A stretch of 64,000 bases of DNA. Origin: a virus. Taxonomy: Duplodnaviria > Caudoviricetes. The notes under the pieces were generated by a model. The model saw only the letters and a program-made list of their open reading frames with translations. It searched no databases and was not told the origin of the DNA. The translations under genes and the position numbers were made by a program. Positions 3,970 through 60,200 of the stretch are shown piece by piece. Position 1 is the stretch's first letter; every line of letters begins with the position of its first letter. The stretch is from the IMG/VR virus record IMGVR_UViG_3300035498_000877, positions 64,001 through 128,000 of that record. One strand, written 5' to 3'.

Positions 3970-5493
3970 CTAAGCTGTCTTTTTAGGTAAACATTTAGGA
4001 GAGCCGCCGTAGGCCCAGAACGAGGCAGAAACCACACCAGAGAGATCCACGCACACCAAGCCCACAGGAGACTCAACGCTCGTGTCGCCACCAAAGGCCG
4101 CGACATCTACTTGAGAGTTGTTAAACCAAGCTCCAGATGTATAATAAGTTGACGCACTACCAGATACCTCTTTAATGAATATACCATTTTCAGTAAATGT
4201 CATACTCTTTAGATAACCACCATTAGTACCAGATGGTGTAGAACCAATATTAATATATCCATCACCAGTAAAGTTATATCCTTCTACTGTACTACCATCT
4301 TCGGTACCATAAGTAAGTTTTACTAACTGAGTACCTTTATTATTTATTAATCCATACATCCATCTCCATATATTACCCCAGAAATTCTCAATACCAAATA
4401 TTTTAACACCTGATACATTATCTGTTGTACCCCAGAATAAACCTTTTTGATCCATAGTACCTGATTTAATTTGTCCAGTATTAGAAGTAGATTTATAAGA
4501 ATTATTATTACCTCTACCAAATGCTGTTTTAGAATCAGTAGTCTTGCTAATTAATAGTGATAATAGTACTATTAATAACCAATCACTATATGTATTCATA
4601 CTCCATATATTGTCACCATTTTGATTATTTGCAGCTGCATATTCAGCAGTCTGTGTTGCATTAATATAATTGGCTACTGATAAACCGCTGATAGATCTTA
4701 ATACACTATCTACATTACTACCATCATATGCTGGCATATACATATATGGTACTTCATCGCCATAATTGTTTATATGAGCCCATGCATGATAATTAGTATC
4801 TACTTGTTTATTTGATATATAAACATTTACACTATCATCTGTTTGTAATACAAGTTTAAAATATACCTTTGGTATACCAACCATTACATTACCTGCAACA
4901 GTAGTATCTGAATTATATGCATCCTCTCCACTAATAGTTTTAGTATAATCATTTGGATCTAATAGATATGCCTCAGTACCATCATAATTCAACATGCATG
5001 GTCTAAGATTCTTTATAAAGAATGCATTACCCCAATCACCATAATCAAATACATCATTATCATAATCCATATGTGCTGCAGTATAATTTGTATTTTGGCC
5101 AATATATGATATCATACTATTAGGATCAGATGTCGATTGATTAAGATTGAATCCATATATTTCAGCATCCCTAATAGTTACTGTTCCAGTGTTTGAATCA
5201 CTATTAACCTCGATTACCATTTTGCTAATTAAATCATTGAACATTGTAGAAATATAATCATCTAATCCCAAATTATCCCTACCAAATTGCTTCTCTTCAT
5301 CAGTCAAATTTTGTTCTTCTGTAACATCTAATGCTTTATAATTTTCCACATTATCCAATCCAATATCGGATTTAGTAATATTATGTGGATTTGATGCTTG
5401 TATATGTTTTTCTATTCTAGTCTTACTATCCTTTTTACTTAATTTAACTAAATCACGAATTGAATTGGTACCAATATACTTATTATTACTCAT
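3970..5493 (-). CDS. DGR target: fibre/receptor-binding protein with C-type-lectin-like C-terminus
   Basis: N-terminal NPHNITKSDIGLDNVEN fibre motif; GIENFWGNIWRW CLec/FGE-type motif; VR at the 3' end. Confidence 0.85.
   Translation of the reverse strand: MSNNKYIGTNSIRDLVKLSKKDSKTRIEKHIQASNPHNITKSDIGLDNVENYKALDVTEEQNLTDEEKQFGRDNLGLDDYISTMFNDLISKMVIEVNSDSNTGTVTIRDAEIYGFNLNQSTSDPNSMISYIGQNTNYTAAHMDYDNDVFDYGDWGNAFFIKNLRPCMLNYDGTEAYLLDPNDYTKTISGEDAYNSDTTVAGNVMVGIPKVYFKLVLQTDDSVNVYISNKQVDTNYHAWAHINNYGDEVPYMYMPAYDGSNVDSVLRSISGLSVANYINATQTAEYAAANNQNGDNIWSMNTYSDWLLIVLLSLLISKTTDSKTAFGRGNNNSYKSTSNTGQIKSGTMDQKGLFWGTTDNVSGVKIFGIENFWGNIWRWMYGLINNKGTQLVKLTYGTEDGSTVEGYNFTGDGYINIGSTPSGTNGGYLKSMTFTENGIFIKEVSGSASTYYTSGAWFNNSQVDVAAFGGDTSVESPVGLVCVDLSGVVSASFWAYGGSPKCLPKKTA
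3994..4103 (-). repeat. DGR variable repeat VR1
   Basis: Encodes AAFGGDTSVESPVGLVCVDLSGVVSASFWAYGGSPK; A-to-N substitutions relative to TR. Confidence 0.95.
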
Positions 5494-5563: not shown

Positions 5564-7804
5564 TCATTGATTATCTACATATTTAGCTAGTGCTGCACAT
5601 TCCAATAGTTTTAATTCATACAACTCATTATCATCTATTACCAATAAAGCCCAATCATCTGGTACATTATTTATCCTTGGTATAAGATTAAAAGATTCAT
5701 ATTTCAAATATAAATTATTCCAATAATAAACATTAGCTAGTGCCTCAGCAATCATTTGTATACATGTGAATGTTGCTTTCTTATTTGGAGTTCCAAATAC
5801 TGTATGACCTAAGGCTGAACATGAAGCACAATCATTTCCAATTGGACAATCAAAACAAATATCATTAGTCTGAGATCTTCTAGTAATTGAATCGAGTAAT
5901 TTTAATACTTCTGAATCTTGTTCTCGTCCAACTAACCCATCATCAATATTTCCAATGCATAGATCTTTAACATCATTTCCTACAGATGTTGGCATATACC
6001 TGATACATGGATAGAATTGTCCATTAGGTCTTAATGCTAACATTGATCCAGTACCTCCACAGAAATTAGAATCATTATGTTTTGCTTCTTTATCCTCCTG
6101 CTTCTCATTAAATATAGATATATAAATATGCTCTAGATTATTAGATATTAAATATCGAGCAAGTTTCTTTAATTGATAATACTCAGTAGCTGCAGTATCT
6201 CTAGTCCATCCTTCCTCAAATACACAATTCATATTTATACATTTCATGTCATTCTTAATAAAGTCTACTACTGAATCATATAAATACATTATATTAGATG
6301 GAGCTAATGTCATCTTAGAATTTCTTTCAGAAGTATAATTCTTATTATAATGATTTAATGCTGCTATATCAATATCATATGATCCTTCTCCATTAGGTTG
6401 TATTCTACAAGAATCATGCAATTGTTTATTTCCATCTATTGATATATTGAATGAAATATTATGTGCATATTCTTTGAAGAATTCTTGTACTTCATCATCA
6501 AAATATTGCATACCATTAGAGCATATAGATAATCTATGTAAAGCAAACCAAGGATGATTTAATTTATAACACTGATCCAAAAAATATTCATAGATCTGTT
6601 TAATCAATTCAATTTCCAATAATGGCTCTCCACCAATAAATTCAATAATAATTGCAGGTGAATTATATCTATTTATATATCCATATTTATCAGCTAATAG
6701 ATTATCTACGAACTTCTTTGCAGTATCAAATGACATTCTATCATTAGTCTTATTAAACTGATAGCAGTATGTACAATTATGGACCACTGCATTATTAGCA
6801 ATATATGTATGACAAGTAGTTGTTAGATTACAAACAGTTCCAGAATCACATGCTTCTAATTTTTCAATCATAACACTATTGCTGGGGACGATCTGAATAC
6901 GTTTATCTATCAAGAAAACAAATAAATCATTATCATCTATAATTTGTTTAAATGGTTTAAATTCTCCATTTGAAGTTAAGAATGGATGATCATCTGTAAC
7001 TCTAAATAATTCTCTTCCTGAAGACTTGTCCTTCACAATATTTAGTGGCTCATACATACGCCACATATTTGTCACTATATATGGCTTAAAGTATTTGAAG
7101 TCATGATATTTTTTAGCATCACTTTCATCAATACCTAAAATTTCATCTCCACAACTAATATCTTCTATATTCTTTTCTGTCCAGTCAGCCATCAGAATTT
7201 TAGTTCCCATAGCAAAACAATTCAAAGAACATCTTTCAGTTACTTGGAAAGTAAAATTATGACAGAATACATCAGCATCGTCACCGCATCCAACTTGATC
7301 TTGTCTTTTATTTGAAAATAATTCTGGATATGCTTTAGCAATTGCATTATTATATGAATCAGTAGTAAATCTGAAATACTGATCTGGAAATATATCTAAT
7401 ACATCATTATCTGGTATCAAATTATCAACTGTTTGTAAAAATTCAACATCATCAGATAATAGTAACATCTTATATTTGCAATACATTGTATCGATTTCTA
7501 CATTCTGGATCAACATATCTTTGATTGGCATATCATTATTTTTAGATACTGATTGCAAAATATCAATTGCTATATTAGAAAACATTGATCTGAGCTGCAT
7601 ACTAGATTCAGTAAATTCTTTTCTCAAATCCGGAATCTTATCTAAATCATAATTGTGTTTAACCATATATTTCATTCTAAACAATAATGCGTCAATTTCA
7701 AGTGATAATCTATCTAATCTGTAATCTTTGTATTTCTCTAATACAAATTTATCAAATTGAACTTTGTATAATGTAATATCTTTTTCTAATAAATGAGTTT
7801 TCAT
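5564..7804 (-). CDS. Radical SAM/SPASM peptide maturase (Cxxx-repeat-target type), intein-containing
   Basis: After intein removal TFQVTERCSLNCTYCY; FIGGEPLL, SIDG, FCGG..ML..G.FYPC and CFDC...C..C SPASM cysteines. Confidence 0.85.
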   Translation of the reverse strand: MKTHLLEKDITLYKVQFDKFVLEKYKDYRLDRLSLEIDALLFRMKYMVKHNYDLDKIPDLRKEFTESSMQLRSMFSNIAIDILQSVSKNNDMPIKDMLIQNVEIDTMYCKYKMLLLSDDVEFLQTVDNLIPDNDVLDIFPDQYFRFTTDSYNNAIAKAYPELFSNKRQDQVGCGDDADVFCHNFTFQVTERCSLNCFAMGTKILMADWTEKNIEDISCGDEILGIDESDAKKYHDFKYFKPYIVTNMWRMYEPLNIVKDKSSGRELFRVTDDHPFLTSNGEFKPFKQIIDDNDLFVFLIDKRIQIVPSNSVMIEKLEACDSGTVCNLTTTCHTYIANNAVVHNCTYCYQFNKTNDRMSFDTAKKFVDNLLADKYGYINRYNSPAIIIEFIGGEPLLEIELIKQIYEYFLDQCYKLNHPWFALHRLSICSNGMQYFDDEVQEFFKEYAHNISFNISIDGNKQLHDSCRIQPNGEGSYDIDIAALNHYNKNYTSERNSKMTLAPSNIMYLYDSVVDFIKNDMKCINMNCVFEEGWTRDTAATEYYQLKKLARYLISNNLEHIYISIFNEKQEDKEAKHNDSNFCGGTGSMLALRPNGQFYPCIRYMPTSVGNDVKDLCIGNIDDGLVGREQDSEVLKLLDSITRRSQTNDICFDCPIGNDCASCSALGHTVFGTPNKKATFTCIQMIAEALANVYYWNNLYLKYESFNLIPRINNVPDDWALLVIDDNELYELKLLECAALAKYVDNQ
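6776..7219 (-). mobile_element. Mini-intein (148 aa, no endonuclease domain)
   Basis: Starts CFAMGTKILMAD, block B TDDHPF, ends YIANNAVVHN followed by +1 Cys. Confidence 0.92.
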
Positions 7805-21229: not shown

Positions 21230-23864
21230 TTATTTTTCTTCCATTAATTGATTTTCATCAAATTTTCTATAATTATCCCTTGGATCTTTTTCTACAATAA
21301 TATCCATGGGTTCATTTGTAACTCCATATACTTTTAACTTTCCTTCAGATGCATGATATAATGCATCTAATGTTTTGTTATATTCTTCTTCTGAATCACA
21401 TACTATTCTTAATGATTCCCAATCGTCATCTAATTTTTCTTCTTCCATATACTTGGCTATTTTATAATGCATTTCGTTTTCATATAATGAATCATCAAAA
21501 TACATTGATTTCATATCACAAAATGGTGACAACTCCCCTGACTGGCCCGGATCTGAGGCACTGCCTTGTGCAAGGTCTGTCCAACCGACCATAGATGGAT
21601 GTAATATACGTTGACGAATTGGGATTCTTCTAGTATCATTTCCTCCTAGTGAATTTGGCAATTATCTTCATATTAGTTCGCAACACTAATACAGTTCCTT
21701 TATGAACTTCTCATACTCTCGTATGACAATAACCTATCTCAAGGTTAAGGTGTGTTTCCACAGTTGAGACTATATCTTTACTATATTATCTTTTACCAAT
21801 GAATATAGTACCACTCGTTTCCCATTACTCTATTCCCTGTCAGGGTTTATAGCCCTCATTAGCTTAGGGGGTACTCTACTGACTACATTGTATAGGTTAT
21901 TAGTCCATATACGTAGTTGACCGATAGTCGTTGAACTTTGTATTATTTTATTTTCACATTTTACTATTTAAAACTAAAATTAATTATACCTAGCTGCCTG
22001 TGATTGTCTAATCCTAAATGATTTTACCATCCGATAGTCGTTATACTATCTGCTACACTGTATCAGCTGCGGTTATTTAGGCTATAAAGAGTTTCCGGCA
22101 ATTAGTAGTGGTAAGGCTCGTAAATTTACTGCTATGAGGCTAGTAATAGGCAACCTTTTTTAGTGTATGTAAGGAAGGAATGAAAATCCATATCTGAATT
22201 TGATTCTGCATATCTAAGAACTCCAGATGAATATAACTTTGTTAGAAAAATATCTTCCAATTATCTTCACATAATTTCGCATGCGGATTATGTAGTTCCC
22301 TTATGAACTTCTCCTACTTTCATAGGACAACATGTTATTTCAAACATGAGGTGCATTACTGCAGTTGTGACTATATCTTCTATTATATTCTATTACCAAA
22401 TATAACAGTCTCTCGTTTCCTTTTACATATAACCATTCCATTGTTATATAACCCAATTCTACTTGGTAAGTACTCTACTGACTATATTAGTACCGTATTT
22501 CTCGAATACTATAGTTGGTCGATAGTCGATGAACACTCATCTTTACAGATGATTAGCTGCGATGATTATCCCTATTCAATACCTTTTAACTATACCTTGA
22601 GATATTACCTCTTGCCATTTATTATATTTCTATAATAATTTAGTAGTATTGACTTAGCAGGAACTTCCCGCAATTATGAGAGAATCCCCAAAGAGATTTT
22701 AGGGAATCTGAAAAGTTTTAAATAATCAGATATAAGAGCTTTATCACCCAGACTTACTATACGATTAATTCGTTTTGATACTTCAGCAGTTACAAAACTT
22801 CCTAAGTACTCATTGCATCTTAATCGCTTATTCTCCATTGATAAATTATCTTTTGCCCATAGTTTATGATAATTCTGAATTATCCATCTAAGTAAATGAT
22901 AAATATCTTGTTTATCGTAATCATTGATCTTTAATTCTTTCTTAGATACATCATCAAGTAATCTATTAAAGAATATATGTTGATATACTCCTCTACGTAC
23001 AGTATTCTTTCCACCTACTATTATCATCCACTCTTCCCAATCATCTATCTTGTCATATGAGATTTTAGTTTCTTCAAATAGTTTTATTAGACATCCTACT
23101 ATAGATCTTACATAGATTTCTTTATCAAATATATTCTTCTTCACTATAACAACAATATCACTTTTCTTTCCGCAGTCAAATTTAATTATTTTATCTGAAT
23201 CAGGATAGTTTCCATCTTTCTTTCCAACATAAATAAATTTATCCACTTCCATAAATATCAATGTCTTTGTAATACCAAGATTCGAATATATCAATAATAC
23301 ATTAATTGCATTCTTGAATATCTGAATTGTATATATTGGAATTTGATATTCATTTCCTTTGGTATCTGTAAAGTTTTCCTTTATAGTCTTTACACATATT
23401 GGCATTAGTGATTTAATTGTTACAGCTCCAAATGATGGATATAACATTTTATCTACCATCTGGTATATTAAATAACATTTCTTTCCTTTTATCATACAAT
23501 AACCATTCTCATCTATCAGTGGGATTAGAATTGGTTTCGTTAGATAGTGAACCTTTAGTACTCCATCTTTATCATGGCCAGATACTTCAATGTTTAAATA
23601 CATTACTCCACATCTAGTTTCTGATATATTTTTGATGGCCTTATTCTTATTTGCATTTCTTCTGATAACATGATCATTTACATCATACTTATCTTCATCA
23701 GGCTCCCATTCATAGCTCAATATTTTTATATTGGGCAGAATTTCAAATCCTTTAAATGCATCGAATATGTACTCTTCCAATGGTTTATCATATGACTTTT
23801 GAATTAATCCAACATTTAAATTTTCTTTGTATGGATTGGGTAATTTATTAATATATTTCTTCAT
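21230..23864 (-). CDS. Phage RNA polymerase beta subunit, N-terminal part; 3 exons (22701-23864, 22153-22257, 21230-21658), 565 aa spliced
   Basis: Splicing gives ...LFRFP|EDIFLTKLYSSGVLRY...TYTKKG|PNSLGGND...RILHPSMVGWTDL..SASDPGQSG. GKKCYLIYQMVD and NKRLRCNEY are beta-like motifs. Confidence 0.85.
21659..22152 (-). ncRNA. Group I intron (494 nt, no ORF)
   Basis: 5' exon ends in U (GGU), intron ends in G; P aattgccggaaac, Q aatcacaggcagc, R gttcaacgacta, S aagatatagtc. Confidence 0.9.
22258..22700 (-). ncRNA. Group I intron (443 nt, no ORF)
   Basis: P1 ttcccU|aaa...ttgggga; P aattgcgggaa, Q aatcatcgcagc, R gttcatcgacta, S aagatatagtc; terminal G. Confidence 0.9.
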
Positions 23865-35957: not shown

Positions 35958-38900
35958 TTATTCATCTTCTAATCTAGCAAATTTTGATAAATTATTTTTG
36001 AATAGTTGGACAATATTATCAGTTAGATGCTTTTTCTTAAATGGTATATTGTCCATAACCCATTCCATCATCTCATCATAATCATTACCAATCTCATGAG
36101 GATGTAATTTCATCCATATTACATATGTTTTGATTAATTTATTCAGATAATAATATTCGGCTTTAGTACACAATATAGTTGCATCACCAAAACGATATTC
36201 ATTAACTATTTCTTCATCTTCTGCTTGTCCAATAAATTCATCTTCATCATCTATTGTTTGCATTTCAACACCTAATGATTTAAGATAAACTTGTAATATT
36301 TCAGATGTTCTAGAAGTAAATGAATCAGGAATATTATATTTATTATCATCTGATAAAATTGCTTCATACATATATTTTCTACCATCTACTGAAGATCTAT
36401 ATAATGCAGTAATTAATGCAAAGTCTTCTGGGTTAGTTATGATCATGAAGTTGGGCATTTCATATTCGCCGAACCTGATTGGTTTGCTAGAATACCAAGA
36501 TTTACCTATCTTATTTTCATGAGATTTCTCTGGTAATCCCTCATCAGATATTGATCCAGATGAACGTACTGAGAATCCCTTTTCACCTGATTGTTTTAAC
36601 ATCATCATATACTGATATCCAATATTATCACTACCTATATAGATATCTCTACCCCACTTTGGTTTAGGTACAAATATATGATATGGAGTGAATATATCAG
36701 GATATTTTTCATATACCTGAATAATCTTATCTCTCCATGTTTTATAATCAGGCTCTGAACTATCTTCAAATGCTTCCCATCTGATATATAATGTATCATC
36801 AGTTCTTAATGTACCATCTCTATTCAAATTAATGGTACTATCAATAAATTTAACTTTCTCTCGGTCTGATAATCCATCATAAATATTTTCAAATTCTTTA
36901 GCTTCTTTTTCATTAAGTATTTTCATGATATCAAATAAGAATTCTTTACGTTCTTCATTTGTTTCCAAAGTGGCAGCATGTTTTCTAGCAATGTCTTGTA
37001 TGTATGTAACACTACCTTCAAGCATAACCATTGGAATAGTTCTATTAATAATAGCTAGAGGATTTGTAATCATATCTACTCTTTCGATAATACCTTTTGG
37101 ATGTTTAACTCCATATTTATCTACAGTATATTCCCTAGTAAGATATGGCATTTCTTCATCTGCTCTAATCTGACAAATCACTGTTTTGTCATTTCCTTCA
37201 CATAGTTCGCAACACTATGCAGTTCTCTTATGAACTTCTCATACTCTCGTATGACAATAATCTATCTCAAGGTTAAGGTGTATTTCTACAGTTGAGACTA
37301 TATCTTTAGCTCATTTATATGAACAGAGCTAGGCTTTTCCAATTAAGGGAATTTCACCCGCTACCATTAGCTTGTAGCCGTACTCCTGTTGGCTTGTTAG
37401 GCCCGAGGGATAGTCGTTGAACTTCTTTATTTTGATATACTTTACATGCATAATGCATATGTTATAATTAATTGAATTATATGAAAACATTGATCTTGTA
37501 TCAAATTAATCTTCAATAAATTCGCTTTAATATGATCTATGATATAATGAGCAATTGAATTTACAAATAACATGATTGTTATAATAAGATATTTATCTTC
37601 ATTATGATAATTATAAATTACAATTGGTAGCATTATACAGAATGCCCATTGAAATGAATGCAAATATAATGCTATAATATAATCATATTGATATAAAGGT
37701 GATGGAGCATTTTCTTCCCACCACTTTTTCTGTTTCATAGATCCCATTAATCCTTGTAAGTTAAAATCAGCAAATATGTGCATAAATAACATTGCTGAGT
37801 ATACTATATATTTTGGAATAATCATAATATCACTTCCTTTCTTATTGGAAGTATATCAAAATAAATTTAGCTGCGGATCTTCTCTATTAACTACATTATT
37901 ACTATACCTAAGGCATTACCCTTCGCCATCATTATATTACTATAATGATTTAGTAGTGTTACTTTACAAGATTTGCCCGCAATTAACCTAGTTTTACATG
38001 GGCCAAAACATACATATGCTCCCATGTCGGCCTACGATCTTTCGGCCGATGATTGCTTGTTCTTTCTTACGTACTAAAATCTCTACCATCATATTAGAGA
38101 ATACATTATCATTATATGCCCATACTGCTTGAGTATCTAGATAATTCATTGCAATTCTCTTCCAATGATTAATATTTTTATGGATATTTTTACATCCCGA
38201 TTTCAGTATCTTATTGCATATTTTATATACCTTAGTATAGAACCATCTGCTGTCATTGTAATATTGAACAAGTTGTTTATTCACTTTATTAACTTTTATA
38301 TTGGAATTATTGCAATAGATATTGATATCAATTATTTCACCATCTGCATAGAATATTTGATCTGTTTGAGCATTGATGTGAGTAAGTGAAGAATCTCTGA
38401 GATCTGAAAACATTCTAGTCTCTTTAATGGTACGAGTAGCTGCCAATATACCATTATCTATTTTATCTCCAATATTAGGAAGTCCAATATAATCGTTATT
38501 ATCCTTCCCATATAAATTCAATAGAATCGTATTTTCATTGATTGGTATTGTAATAGATTTCACATTATTAGTCACCATTCGTTTTGCAAATGATTCTGAT
38601 ACTACAATAGCATCATCCTGTACAGCTGGATCAACCCCATACAATATTCTTCCATTAATACCAACTCCAACATTCATATCTTCATCATATGATGTAGATG
38701 CATATACTAATGTATCTTTGGATATAGTTTCACCAACTTCGCATTGATCCAGAAAATCATTATCATAAGCAAATCCAAAATTTTCTGTTAGATCCTCTAC
38801 CTCTTTGCGTTCCAATACAATATACTTATCTTCTTTCTCTGAATATAGAAAGTATAGTGCCATATAAGATTTACCTTTTAACAGTTCTTCATACTTCTTA

Positions 38901-39172
38901 GCAATATCAACTACTTTGTAGTCAGTATCGGCACGAAAATAATTTGAAGATTGCTCACCTATTAGATTCTCCTTACCATCAAAGAACATAGGAAATTCTG
39001 GATTATCAATTGCTAAATGTTGAACCTTATGTTTGATATTCATGGTAGATCTCATAACATTGTTACCACCAGGAAAATCTCCTTGACCAACTAAAGCTAA
39101 TCTTTTGTTACCTTTGAGCTCTTCATTTTTCTTTTGAAGTTCGTATATAAGGTTATACTTCTCTCTAGCCAT
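35958..39172 (-). CDS. Phage RNA polymerase beta subunit, C-terminal part; 2 exons (38020-39172, 35958-37189), about 794 aa
   Basis: RSTMNIKH, QDDAIVVSES, spliced GRKIVGRHGNKTVI...EEMPYL, ITNPLAIINR, GYQYMMMLKQ, PIRFGEYE. Confidence 0.9.
37190..38019 (-). ncRNA. Group I intron (830 nt) containing a non-endonuclease ORF
   Basis: P aattgcgggcaaa, Q agatccgcagc, R gttcaacgacta, S aagatatagtc; 3' region nearly identical to intron 21659-22152. Confidence 0.88.
37442..37825 (-). CDS. Intron-encoded DUF3307-like membrane protein
   Basis: HIFADFNLQ, H..QW, HYIIDHIK, DQCFH motifs with hydrophobic helices; own SD aaggaagtg. Confidence 0.75.
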   Translation of the reverse strand: MIIPKYIVYSAMLFMHIFADFNLQGLMGSMKQKKWWEENAPSPLYQYDYIIALYLHSFQWAFCIMLPIVIYNYHNEDKYLIITIMLFVNSIAHYIIDHIKANLLKINLIQDQCFHIIQLIITYALCM

Positions 39173-39318
39173 TTTACTTATTCCTCCTTTAAAAATGTTA
39201 ATAGTAATAGTTCTCACTTACCGAAAAAGAATATATAAATAAAAATAAATATAGATCCTTAATTTTTATTCACTTTTTACAGTTTCTATAATAATATTTA
39301 AGTAAAGGAGAGAATCTT

Positions 39319-42300
39319 ATGAATATTGAATTAGTTGATATGAATAGGATTATAGGTGTTAATAAGTTAGAAGAAGTCAGTGGACCTAGATTATTTTCTT
39401 CTAAGATGACTTATGATCCTGCAGGTATATTATCGAATGAAATATTTGGTATTTCTAAACAAGATAGACGTAATACATTTGCCTATATAAATCTTAGAAG
39501 ACCTTTTATTCATCCGCATATCTATAATAATGTATTGATACCCACATATCGAAAAGCTATTGGTATTGTTGCTGGTCAGAAATATGTAAGTGTTAAAGAT
39601 GGAATTATAATAGATGATCCTGATAATGGATGGACTGGTATATCTAATTTATATTCACATTGGGATGAAATAGACTGGAAGAAAGTCAAACTCAATGAAT
39701 CCAATAATAGATCACTATTAGTGAATCTAAAAAGAGATCAAGTATTTATTGACAAGATACTAGTATCACCACCAGCCTATCGTGATGTAATGATTAGTGG
39801 TACAGTAGATTCTTCAGATCATGTCAGTGAAGTAAATGATTTATATTTAAAATTAATCAGATCAGTTGCTTTATTATCTGAGGGAGGAATGTTTGCTAGA
39901 ACACAGTATGCCACTCAGAAAAATATACAGGATACATTAGTAGCTATTTATAATTACTATAAGAATCTTATATCAAAGAAACAAGGATTGATCAGAAAGT
40001 ATTTACTAGGTAAGAGTGTTGACTATGGTACCAGATCAGTTATATCAGCTCCATCTTATAACCATGAGAGATTTGAAGATAATATAATTGATATGGATCA
40101 CTCTGCAATACCAATAGAACAATGTTGCTCTAACTTTTATCCATTTATAGAAGCATGGGTAAAAAATTTCTTTACAAGGGAAATTATTAATGATCCAAAT
40201 GTAATGACTTTTTATGACCCAGAATTGAAAAGAGAAATTACTGCATCTATTAAAGATCCAGAAATACAATTCTCTGAAAAGAATGTAAAGAAGATGATAA
40301 ATGATTACTGTTTGAATCCTGATAATAGATATAAAATAATAACAATGGATGTTGTTATTCCCACAGCTAAAGAGGATAAAATATTGAAAGCAAATCTATT
40401 ATTGAAAGGAAAAGTAATTCTTCCTAATAATGCTTCTACCCAATTAGCAAGACAACTAACAGTAACAGATATCTTATATTTGGCATGTGTTGATGTATGT
40501 GAAAAAAGACATATAATGATATCAAGATATCCTGTAGGTACAGATAAAGGAATATACTTTAATAAGATAAGAGTTCAATCAACACGTAATCATATTAAAT
40601 TAGTATTCAATGGAAAAGAATATCCTTTTTATCCAGATATACGATTAGATACTGATCATGATAAAGTAGGAATTCAATTTATTGATTCATTAGTTCTATC
40701 CAATGCTCATTTGGATGGCATGGGTAAATCAGTGCTCATGTAAAACCTTTTTAACTGCCGGGAACTCCATTAATCATAAATAACTGCAGCTAGTAGTGAT
40801 ACATAGTGTAGCAATATACATAACGGTATATGGATAGTAAAATCATTTATGATTGGATAATCATAGGCAGCCAAGTATCTATATTTATATAGATAAAGGT
40901 TCAGAGACTATCGGCCAACTATAATATGCGAGAAACTCGGTATTAATAGTCATTAGAGTAGATCTATCACGATAGATAGACCACCAATCTTGGCAGGAAG
41001 TGGAGTAATTCGAAATGGAAGGTGGGGGATATCGGTAACAGGTATTCTCTGAAGATATAGTCCAAAATTAAAGTTCTAACCCCAGTAAAATCGCTGGCTG
41101 ATTATGATGGCGATGTACTTAGCTTAAGGGGTATATGGTCCGATGAAGCTAATCAAGAAGCTGAAGAGATCATGAATAAGAAAATAAGTGTATTAAATAT
41201 TACTGGTACTAATGCTAAAGGAGTATCTAAGGAATTAGTAAACTCTATGTACGAATTAACTAAAACTATGAAAGGATCTAGATCAATCAATGAAGAAGAA
41301 ACTAAAGAATTACTTAGTATTAGTTTTAACGATATTACTAGAAGTAAACTTGCAGATTGGTTTGCTGATACAGTAGATTGTTCAGTAAAGAATCAAGCAG
41401 GTAAAAGACATTCTAGGTTTAATACATGGGATCTAATGAATGTTCCTAGAAATTATTTTTATGATGGACAACCTGCATTGACTACTACTGTAGGTAAATT
41501 TGTGTACAATAAATTTGTATTGGAAGCATCTGGAATTATTGGTGCAGTAGGATATATATCTGATACTATCAATAAAGGCAAGAATGGTGATATTGATAAT
41601 CTAGTAGGAGATCTTTTATTGAATGATAAAATTAATAAGACTCAATTCAATAATTATATTGATAGAAGAGATACTTTAGGTTATTGGATAAATGGCATGT
41701 TAGCACATACAATATCTGAAAAGATGCTTAAGCCATTACCAGAAGTTGAGAAGAAGAAAGCAGAATTAATTAAAGCACATGAAAAAGAATTAGCTGAAGG
41801 AAATATTGATGTAATGACTCAGATAAGTGATGAGCTTGTTTCTTATGCTAAAGATATACTTAAAGATGATCCTGGCATGGATCTATATACTTCGGGTGAT
41901 CTTGATTTTGGTAACAATTATAAATGTAATTCAATATTGAAAGGTGCTGTAAAGAATGAGATCACAGGTGAATATGATTTTATTGGATCATCATTTATGG
42001 ATGGTATTGAAATTAAAGATATTCCATCACATGCAAATTCAATATTGGCATCTCAATATCCTGCATCAATTGCAACTAAAGATGCTGGTTATCTCGGTAA
42101 GAAATTATTAGCATTACTTCAGATGATGGAATTAGATGAACCTGATACTGATTGTGGTACTAAACAATTGGTACCAGTAGAAATTACCAAATCTAATAAA
42201 TCCAATATGATATATTCATATATAGATGAGGGTGGCGGAAAACTCACTATGCTAGATAATTCTAATATTGGATCATATATTGGAAAGACTGTTAAAATGA

Positions 42301-57222: not shown

Positions 57223-60200
57223 TCATCCTTTCTTTTTCAAATTTCTTAATGGGCTTACTGATAGCATATTTCTGAATTTTTCAATAAATTTATCAGCTCC
57301 AGTTCCAGCAATCTGTATACCAACATCATATGCATTGCCTCTATCATATTGAGATAGAGTTAACCCATTACCTTCTATTTTATCAACTGCGTCAGAAGAT
57401 ACAGTTACAGTTGCGGTATATGAAGATGTATCAAGCATAAATGAACGCATATTTGCATCTCCCGATATTGAATCTGGTATAGTAATATCCTGATTGAATG
57501 ATGAGCATTTCCATAAGAAATGATCAAGACATTGCCGTCCAGATACTCCTGGATGTATTATAGTACTACCTTCAGTCTTCTTATCTGGAATTGTTAATGG
57601 TTTATTAAATGACGTACATCCATGCAAGAATTTCATCAAACATTTATCTCCAGTTACACCACTAGGTATTGTAAGATCTTGATTAAATGACGTACATCCA
57701 TCCAGAAATCCTTCCAAGCAACGTTCTCCAGTTACACCGCTAGGTATGGTAATTGCTTGGTTGTATGATGTGCATCCTTTTAAGAATCCTTCAAGACAGC
57801 GTGCACCAGTTACACCGCTAGGTATTGTCAATGACTGATTGAATGATGTACAGCCAGCCAAGAAGTTTCTAAGAGAACCTCCTCCAGATACAGAGTCTGG
57901 TATTCTGTCAATAGATGTTAAACTTGTAAAGTTTCTTGCAAAGTTAGCTAATGATGTAATACTATATGTTTCCGGATTATCAATTTCTTTTTCTTCATAT
58001 TCATCTGGATCACCTGGATTAACTTTGTCTTTCAGTTTTTTCTCTATAACCTTTGAGCTCCAGAATGATATTTTAGTTACCTGATTCTTAGTAAATGATG
58101 ATCCACCTGCTGTTATAGTAGTATTTGCTGGTAAATTATTACTTAAATTGTATATTTCTTCTTCATTAAAAATGGATACAGTATTATTGTTGCTAAGAGT
58201 CAATTTTAAAACTTCATATTTATGAGTTGAAGGAGCATAAAAGTTAATATTAAAGTCTTGCGTATAACTTTCTCCAGTATGCTTATAATATTTATGCTCA
58301 TCCTTAGAAACTTTGTTGTATGCAGAGCCATCCCATTTATAATATTTATTATTAACATTGGATGCCAGTATATTATTATATATTTTATTAGAATCTGGAG
58401 TTATTTCATCTTTATATGCCGAATTATCAGAATCATATGATGAATAAAATGTACCTTTATACAAATATCCATTCTCAACATCTTTATCAAATTTTCCAGT
58501 TGCATACCATGTGTATTCTTCTTTTGTTCCATTTGCAACAGTAGCTCGAATTTTACATGTTCCAGCTGCAGTTGCTGTCAATACTCCATTACTAATTGAA
58601 GCATTTGTTGATCCTTTATCAACTATTGACCATGATACATCTGAATAGCTAGGAATTTCAGTATCATATGTTTGAGTATCCCTAGCAACAACTGATAAAT
58701 TAGTTTCACATTCAGGGCCTAGTACCATTCTAACATTAGTTGGGAATGATGAAGGTATATTAATAATATCTGCTACTGGAATATATTCTGGAAGGAATGT
58801 TACAGTTCTAAATGTCTCATAATTAACATAACTAGTCTCTCCGGCATCATTTACTTGCTGAATTGCTGATGCTGATTGGGTGACTTCATAAAAATCTCCA
58901 TCTTCAAAATTATAGAAGTAATCATAAGAATCTTTACTTCCCTCAGGAGCTTTATAATCCCAATCATATTCAGAATCCATTGTAACATTATAAGTTTCTT
59001 TCCATGTTGCCGCATCTTGTGTATAAGGCAAAAATTGTAATCCCATTCCACCAGTGGCATTTAATAAACCATTATCTGGATCTCTATTATTATCATTTAT
59101 ATTCCTAGAATATGAAATTATTATACCACCATCACCAGTTGATGCATTCCATGGATCTTTCTCTGCCATAGATAATATTATTGGTCTCTTAGCTCTAATG
59201 ATAGAAGGATATTCCAACTTAACATTTTCAAGATTAATATGTGCCGATGGAGCATCAGGAAATATTAATACAATTTCTACCTTAAATTCAGCATCACTTT
59301 TATTTGCACCGCCACCTTTAACAGTTGCTTTCAATTCTACAGTTTTATCATCAAATGCTTCTATATAAAAACTATCCTGAGTATCATCTTCACTACTAGA
59401 GTTAACATAATCAGGATTTTCTTCCCACCATGTTACAGAATCAGCTGCGATTGAAAGTGTTTTAGTATTTTTATCAAATGTAACATTGGCAGGAGTAGGA
59501 TTAACTAATTCCCATTCAATTGTTTTGACAGATGCAGTAGATGGTGAAACTGTTGCACTAGCTAATGAAAGTGGCTCTGATACTTTATCCCATGTACTAG
59601 GAACACCTGATATACCCTCAGCAACAATAAATGCACCATTGACACTAATTGAAAATTCTTTAGTAAAATCTTCTCCTATTGCTTTACCATTTTTTACAGT
59701 AGCTGTAATTTTTGCTACACCACTTTTAGTAGCAGTAAATATTCCATCATCATACAAAATAGCATCAGTTGATCCTTTACTCGTAATAGCAGCTGTTACA
59801 TTTGTATATGATGGATAATTGGTAACTGATGTATCCCATGATGCCACAAATTTAAGTCTACAAAATTCTCCTGAATTATATGAACCATTATATCCAGTCA
59901 TAATAATATCATTTATTGGATAATATTTATTTATTACCTGTATATCAAATACTTCTACATAGTCATATATAATTTTCGTATATGTATTTTTCTCTGCTGA
60001 ATACATGTATCTATCAGATGATGTGGCATCAATATAAATCTTATACTCTTCACCAGCAATTTCTGTTGTATAACTAGCATCTCTATAAAATTTATTACTG
60101 CTAGATACAAAGTACCCATTAACAGTCTCATATGCAGATCCCTCATTAGGTCTTAAACCATTCTTGATGGTTGCTTGTACTCTTAAATATCCAATATTGC

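Follow-up and report, generated by a model that had tools for sequence, protein, structure and literature searches.

The group I introns of the td and nrdB genes of phage T4 carry the homing endonucleases I-TevI and I-TevIII (GIY-YIG or HNH) in P6, with late promoters of their own. To our knowledge the open reading frames (ORFs) of phage and bacterial group I introns have been treated as homing endonucleases, or as transposases in the case of IStrons. Databases annotate intron ORFs by nuclease search only (PMC11835236). In jumbo phages an HNH-carrying group I intron has been described in the RNA polymerase (RNAP) gene gp210 of PhiPA3 (PMC11620839), IStrons consist of a group I intron together with IS605 transposase genes (PMC4227781, PMC3984707) and in fungal mitochondria rps3 lies inside the mL2449 group I intron of rnl (PMC5626475). 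Here we describe an intron on the minus strand of a 64,000-nt stretch of viral DNA (the window, which comprises bases 64001-128000 of the 289,234-bp IMG/VR virus record IMGVR_UViG_3300035498_000877, referred to below as G000). We consider it quite probable that this is a subgroup IA intron in the gene of a beta-like RNAP subunit, and that an intact DUF3307 gene, captured by recombination, sits in the slot of P6 where an endonuclease gene would be anticipated.

In its predicted workings the window intron resembles the ORF-bearing subgroup IA introns of T4, SPO1/AR9 and PhiPA3, and it is in the cargo that it differs from them. With td and nrdB it has in common the subgroup, including P7.1/P7.2, a P6-loop ORF closed by a stem and a ribosome-binding site within a hairpin, whereas its ORF has neither a nuclease match nor a promoter signal above chance. 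As in AR9 (g189/g190, GenBank KU878088) and PhiPA3, a group I intron interrupts a conserved motif of a phage RNAP beta gene and holds an ORF with its own start in a peripheral loop; furthermore the 3' core is ~79% identical to that of AR9 over 87 nt, and the AR9 HNH gene ends just before the R element. However, those introns encode HNH proteins where the window intron encodes a DUF3307 protein and no homing activity of its own, and their insertion sites are not that of the window intron. The AR9 intron was considered as an orthologue and rejected, as the matching intron of AR9 lies elsewhere in the gene.

The rps3-containing mL2449 intron likewise houses a gene whose function is unrelated to mobility, although the interrupted gene is an organelle rRNA gene and rps3 is essential, ancient and fungus-wide, whereas the cargo of the window intron is accessory and belongs to a single phage lineage. 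IStrons are also bacterial-type IA introns with ORFs other than homing endonucleases, but their mobility genes are found at the 3' end whilst the window cargo is found in P6 and is without a mobility function; no IS200/IS605 transposase was detected at the 3' end of the window intron, the DUF3307 gene being its only family-matched ORF. A literature search turned up no earlier account of a phage group I intron whose cargo is a membrane-protein gene.

The interrupted RNA polymerase gene and its intron

CheckV puts the completeness of G000 at 100%, and its G+C content is 29.8%. Two minus-strand ORFs of 407 aa each (39217..37994 and 37181..35958) flank a 127-aa ORF (37825..37442), and the two outer frames match consecutive positions of phrog_3295 'RNA polymerase beta subunit', 25-402 (E 4e-55) for exon 1 and 407-695 of 698 for exon 2. 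Judged by these matches, the gene is that of a beta-like subunit of the multisubunit RNAP of a 289-kb jumbo phage. In the closest IMG/VR relatives, contigs L011, L012 and L013 (72-76% identical in exon 1), the gene is uninterrupted and reads ...VGRHGNKTVV...; a further contig, L017, is intronless as well. The sole junction that restores VGRHGNKTVV in the window joins ...CAT GGG A to AC AAA ACA GTG..., which places the insertion point in the Asn codon of the conserved GRHG-N-KTV motif, with exon 1 ending in ...VGRHG plus the first base of that codon (A38020) and exon 2 opening with the remaining two bases (..N-K-T-V). When spliced in silico at this junction the product is 809 aa long and aligns with the intronless proteins of 785-797 aa at 67% identity over ~790 columns, with no gap at the junction.

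Other in-frame junctions, with U at -1 and G at omega, were checked by hand and add junk residues. The junction CAT/GGA, giving GRHGNDKTV, would require A at omega in the window or G at -1, and its extra Asp is absent from the intronless relatives.

The intron delimited in this way has the 3' terminus ...GGAAATG, with the omega-G present at 37190, and the core helices P3, P4, P6, P7, P8 and P9 can all be drawn (Table 1). With the covariance model RF00028 the 3' half scores 29 bits (E 4e-5), the 5' half 11.7 bits and the orthologous intron found at the same site in contig L015 66.3 bits. By blastn, positions 38006-37840 are similar to introns of ICP1-like Vibrio phages and positions 37433-37336 to introns of AR9/PBS1 and of large Staphylococcus phages. 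Relative to the orthologous introns of L014 and L015 there are three compensatory double changes in P1 (CATGGG/CCCATG against AGCGGG/CCCGCT), and relative to L015 there is one compensatory change each in P3, in P4 and in the first pair of P10 (A-T for G-C).

Apart from the U.G pair at the 5' splice site, which is taken up below, the element conforms to the group I family in all the respects tested, and its predicted anatomy is solid. An initial annotation made from the window alone had proposed a group I intron in an RNAP gene; its ends (38019..37190) were independently rederived at the same coordinates from exon conservation, P1/P10 pairing and the omega-G, and the exons of the foldable intron rejoin into a colinear product that matches the intronless relatives. 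The 127-aa ORF lies inside this intron and not outside a folded one.

Table 1. Window coordinates of the interrupted gene, the intron with its predicted helices and the cargo gene
Feature	Position	Strand	Details and basis
Exon 1, RNAP beta-like subunit gene	38020..39217	-	phrog_3295; colinear with intronless relatives; probable start ATG 39172, with AAAGGAGG ahead of the ATG
Exon 2, RNAP beta-like gene	35958..37189	-	phrog_3295; junction colinear with L011/L013
Group I intron, subgroup IA (P7.1/P7.2)	37190..38019	-	830 nt; RF00028; L015 orthologue; blastn; helices
P1	37996..38027	-	Exon 38027-38021 (ACATGGG) with internal guide 38002-37996 (CCCATGT), 7 bp; 3 compensatory changes
P10, guide part	38004..38010	-	TGTTTTG with exon 2 37188-37182 (CAAAACA), 7 bp; first pair compensated in L015
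P3 5' strand, J3/4, P4, P5 region	37866..37992	-	Helices; blastn to ICP1-type introns
P3	37991-37987 (5' strand), 37333-37329 (3' strand, P3')	-	CTAGG/CCTAG
P4	37981-37976 with 37877-37872	-	TGCGGG/TCCGCA
P5 extension	37962-37884	-	~80 nt; common to ICP1 intron
Q element	37877-37870	-	TCCGCAGC
P6 5' strand	37849..37865	-	Perfect 17-nt inverted repeat with 37426-37442; arms 406 nt apart
Hairpin enclosing cargo Shine-Dalgarno	37830..37852	-	ACTTCC/GGAAGT; -6.8 kcal/mol, z -2.67
Cargo ORF, predicted small polytopic membrane protein	37442..37825	-	127 aa; DUF3307 / phrog_2470; ATG 37825, stop 37444-37442; profiles, AlphaFold2 model
P6 3' strand	37426..37442	-	First base is last base of ORF stop codon
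3' core and periphery	37190..37425	-	RF00028; drawn helices; identity to ORF-less G000 intron
R element	37422-37411	-	GTTCAACGACTA; P6 3' strand ends 3 nt before R
P7	37415-37410 (5' strand, R/P7), 37301-37296 (3' strand, S/P7)	-	GACTAT/ATAGTC
P7.1/P7.2	about 37409-37334	-	Between P7 and P3'
P8	37330-37326 with 37312-37308	-	
P9	37290-37279	-	GAAA loop
Three further 3' hairpins	37254-37239, 37235-37222, 37219-37201	-	

The DUF3307 gene in the P6 loop

The perfect 17-bp repeat flanks the ORF and stays paired in the ensemble, with pair probabilities of 0.8-1.0 in the partition function of the whole 830-nt intron RNA, so that the ORF and its leader form the 406-nt terminal loop of P6. This agrees with the initial annotation, which had placed a 127-aa ORF with its own Shine-Dalgarno in P6, between Q and R. 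It would appear that the P6 hairpin has been lengthened to a perfect stem closing the loop, which would allow the ribozyme core to fold around the cargo. The Shine-Dalgarno GGAAGTGA (37837-37830) stands 4 nt before the ATG of the cargo, or 7 nt when counted from GGAAG, and the hairpin that encloses it has 6-7 bp and was equalled in 4 of 200 shuffles. The G+C content of third codon positions is 0.195 in the cargo ORF against 0.17-0.23 in the exons, and as this is within the exon range the gene is not a very recent arrival.

The protein is identified as a member of DUF3307 by Pfam (PF11750), with 24.9 bits over residues 11-124 against a cut-off of 23 bits, and by phrog_2470 'membrane protein' (E 4e-12, residues 7-126), and no other family matches. 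Aligned with 24 homologues, it has the conserved residue in every one of the 20 invariant columns, which are H16, D20, Q24, K31, Q32, W35, W36, Y45, D48, H56, W60, H93, D97, K100, N102, L108, D111, Q112, H115 and Q118; the three motifs named in the initial annotation, H16..D20..Q24, H93..D97..K100 and D111-Q112..H115, are real and fall within these columns. The AlphaFold2 model (predicted local distance difference test, pLDDT, 96.4) consists of four long helices and two short ones, and its only clear structural neighbours are viral DUF3307 clusters, with TM-scores of 0.91-0.93. As modelled, the cargo would be a small inner-membrane protein of four helices in whose interior invariant His, Asp and Gln residues cluster; the invariant His and Asp are spaced i/i+4 on three helices, as might be expected of a buried polar or metal site.

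The absence of HNH, GIY-YIG or LAGLIDADG from this ORF, noted initially from its motifs, is borne out by the profile searches, and no nuclease signal was obtained in Pfam, NCBIfam, PADLOC, a PDB sequence-profile search or three fold searches, and by profile the ORF has no homing endonuclease domain of the HNH, GIY-YIG, LAGLIDADG, PD-(D/E)xK, His-Cys box or EDxHD type. Foldseek against the PDB gave no match at E<=0.001, an absence which is not proof in itself, and the best match in VIA-align wide (Z 8.1) is to a designed helical repeat and falls within the helical-bundle background. On the model, the all-helical four-helix bundle looks unlike any known homing nuclease.

As leads to the function of DUF3307, PDB Foldseek, VIA-align wide, ESM Atlas (structure and features), the PDB profile search, NCBIfam and PADLOC were uninformative. 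The category of phrog_2470 is 'moron, auxiliary metabolic gene and host takeover', and we would tentatively predict an accessory membrane protein of the 'moron' type, which might perhaps be a metal-dependent membrane enzyme with the envelope of the host, or one of its signalling or defence pathways, as target, and which does not look like a mobility or splicing factor.

The cargo would share the transcript of the polymerase gene and use a start site of its own, and its translation would take place on the precursor or, with greater likelihood, on the intron once excised. With the Shine-Dalgarno partly sequestered by a hairpin that stacks on P6, and with the stop codon overlapping the P6 3' strand, translation and an intact P6 should exclude each other, and ribozyme folding and cargo translation would then be mutually exclusive on one RNA molecule. 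Furthermore, a ribosome at the stop codon must open the P6 3' strand, which favours translation from the excised intron or from a sub-population of transcripts. This mode of expression is what we infer from the layout of the intron. The initial annotation had suggested that the intron might shelter the gene and couple its expression to the RNAP transcript or to the excised intron, and the sole hint of such a coupling is the partly sequestered Shine-Dalgarno.

Related introns and the origin of the cargo

In two relatives, L014 and L015 (70-71% identical), an intron interrupts the gene where it is interrupted in the window; these introns have the same GR(H/S)G-N-KTV site, the same P1 frame, A at -1 and the same core, with covarying P1, P3 and P4, and in them too the ORF, when present, is found in P6. 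What differs is the content of P6, and the P5 extension and extra P9 hairpins belong to the window intron. The L015 intron (214 nt, 5680-5893) has a P6 stem of 6 bp and no ORF in the loop, the L014 intron (1015 nt, 5680-6694) has a stem of 11 bp and a loop with a 252-aa HNH_3 plus helix-turn-helix gene, which lies between Q and R, and the window intron (830 nt) has its stem of 17 bp and the DUF3307 gene; the three P6 stems are mutually unrelated. The introns of L014 and L015 are near-identical to each other except for the HNH gene with its own P6 stem, which points to a homing endonuclease gene having been gained or lost recently.

HNH genes are found at the same place in the introns of ICP1 and AR9, which share core sequence with the window intron, and another intron of G000, described below, has a PD-(D/E)xK-like ORF in P6. 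The presence of HNH and PD-(D/E)xK-like ORFs in related P6 loops indicates that the slot is normally a nuclease slot, and this premise of the initial annotation stands.

There is one DUF3307 copy in G000, and the gene is absent from two complete relatives (292 kb and 270 kb) and from three partial or more distant ones. Among 5.8 billion proteins the nearest non-identical homologues of the cargo are at most 58% identical. The free-standing phage members of the family (PF11750; phrog_2470) have the same length and invariant residues as the cargo, but in all 16 other contexts inspected they stand in ordinary, tight phage gene arrays with no group I intron signal nearby. One such homologue (3998-4378), in a large phage contig (L005, 3585-4608), lies inside a tRNA array, and a tRNA starts at its stop codon.

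The 3' half of the window intron, which runs from the P6 3' strand to the intron end, has its best match in an ORF-less intron at G000 58555-58802 (84% identity over 253 nt), in which P6 is a plain hairpin, whereas the sequences nearest to the 5' half (72-77%) are three other introns. Because the two halves have different closest paralogues, the P6 stem varies and the relatives are without DUF3307, recombination of a P6 cassette is indicated, and capture in P6 is the most likely origin on the sequence comparisons made here; the DUF3307 gene would have arrived by recombination in the P6 loop, the partner being either another intron or a free-standing gene. A search of the intron for traces of an HNH gene found none, the only tblastn match being a nucleotide homology of the P5 extension with ICP1. 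That phage introns and their ORFs evolve independently has long been known, going by the references given in PMC11620839. With no nuclease of its own the intron would spread vertically, by ordinary recombination or through a nuclease acting in trans only, and it would seem to have lost autonomous mobility. The identical intron and ORF were assembled from three further metagenomes, and the arrangement is therefore stable in nature.

G000 holds about 15 subgroup IA intron cores with matching R and S elements. Two of them form a pair at window 21748-22378 (minus strand), and at least five are clustered near a second beta-like gene (G000 278-280 kb). The genome yielded no more than two HNH_3 genes and a single LAGLIDADG domain, the latter in an 846-aa open frame that is perhaps an intein. 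Two further introns carry P6-loop ORFs behind the same GAAAGGAGG leader. The first of these ORFs (370 aa, G000 272066-273178, L038 1067-2179) has ~40 homologues in large phage contigs and matches nothing in Pfam or PHROG. Its product combines an N-terminal CxxC..CxxC zinc-ribbon, NUMOD3-like W.N.S.EEK repeats and a C-terminal H.WDF...VDVDGSIHD domain. The best structural neighbours of the latter are the PD-(D/E)xK nucleases Hjc (probability up to 0.98) and I-Ssp6803I, with weak E-values, and the ORF probably represents an undescribed family of homing endonucleases. The second (260 aa, G000 273697-274479, L038 2698-3480) is an orphan flanked by a 10-bp stem. Pfam, PHROG and a phage database gave no match and a single distant homologue is known, so that either another non-nuclease cargo or a new nuclease is conceivable.

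A second group I intron of the window, without an ORF, is found in the beta' gene (about 40726-41095, plus strand; RF00028 50.7 bits), where it adjoins the ADYDGD catalytic motif on the 5' side. Its P1 and the TAAAAC that follows are almost the same as those of the beta intron.

Alternative explanations and significance

A number of observations weigh against the reading put forward above. The U.G pair at the 5' splice site is near-universal in group I introns; here position -1 is A38020, which faces guide G38003 and forms no U.G wobble, and efficient self-splicing is therefore not assured. The usual U.G is found in the same frame in the beta' intron of the same window (CATGGGU/GCUCAUG) and in the ICP1 intron (CUGGGU/GCUCAG). 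The A at -1 is fixed by the Asn codon and so is not an assembly slip, and it is also kept in the diverged orthologous introns of L014 and L015 (contig position 5679). An Rfam scan of the whole window at the gathering threshold gave no match, RF00028 remaining below its gathering score of 50 bits because the 406-nt P6 loop splits the covariance model. The hairpin around the Shine-Dalgarno is modest and only partly formed, with probabilities of 0.45-0.6 for its upper three pairs in the whole-intron ensemble, as its foot competes with the top of P6, and a search of the intron for sigma-70-like promoters or terminators gave no signal above chance. Finally, all recovered copies of the intron-borne ORF (three besides that of the window) are 100% identical, which leaves no variation for a dN/dS estimate of purifying selection, and there is no close orthologue; a literature search on DUF3307 gave one paper, in which the name is listed, and no functional test.

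The cargo ORF may be a neutral hitch-hiker that was captured by chance, is hardly or not expressed and is bound to decay in the manner of orphaned intron ORFs. It is true that its Shine-Dalgarno is partly in a hairpin atop a 17-bp stem, but the good start context has been kept, together with the full length and the 20 invariant residues; relatives do well without a DUF3307 gene and there is the lack of a promoter signal, yet the base composition is host-like, as is not expected of a very recent arrival, and the frame is without defect even though the nearest homologue is only 58% identical. We therefore regard a decaying passenger as an unlikely explanation.

It is very unlikely that the ribozyme is dead or crippled, the subunit being made as two polypeptides (or by trans-association) with the DUF3307 gene placed among intron remains between the two halves of the gene. 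Natural splits of RNAP subunits are common in jumbo phages, and exon 2 has an in-frame GTG 12 nt behind AAGGA; however, the break would fall mid-codon inside the invariant GRHGNKTV, and exon 1 would gain 8 junk residues, reading through to a stop at TAA 37996-37994. The A instead of U at -1 and the low RF00028 score in the window would also be in keeping with a dead ribozyme, but that A is kept in L014 and L015, the ORF-less orthologue passes RF00028, all core helices are intact and show covariation against the orthologue, the P10 guide matches exon 2 over 7 bp and the identical sequence is found in four samples.

That the DUF3307 protein serves the intron, as a new mobility, maturase or competition factor (for example in excluding intronless phages) that has replaced the homing endonuclease, is highly improbable for a predicted polytopic membrane protein in which the searches made here found no likeness to nucleic-acid-binding proteins or nucleases, and whose relatives, in the contexts inspected, are encoded by free-standing genes away from introns, even though it sits exactly in the endonuclease slot and the intron-borne HNH of a jumbo-phage RNAP beta gene acts in competition between phages (PMC11620839).

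A subgroup IA intron with a captured DUF3307 gene in P6 is thus the reading that we prefer. It is conceivable, if rather doubtful, that group I introns of large phages carry accessory genes more widely and that the intron is both a safe harbour and a timer for its cargo. As a safe harbour it would hold a cargo that is not lost by sloppy deletion without killing the essential polymerase gene. As a timer it would restrict translation of the cargo to the time after intron excision, the ribosome-binding site and the stop codon being tied into P6.

A natural intron pair in which A stands in place of U at the 5' splice site should interest those who study ribozyme mechanism, and the locus offers a compact test system for how the translation of an intron ORF is reconciled with ribozyme folding. 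The window intron is a rare case of a group I intron that holds ordinary cargo in the loop of the homing enzyme. The same intron occurs at the same site in three forms, empty, with an HNH gene and with a membrane-protein gene, which presents P6 as an exchangeable cassette site where ordinary cargo is accepted. If the cargo is expressed, introns would be one more route by which large phages gain accessory genes and protect them from deletion.

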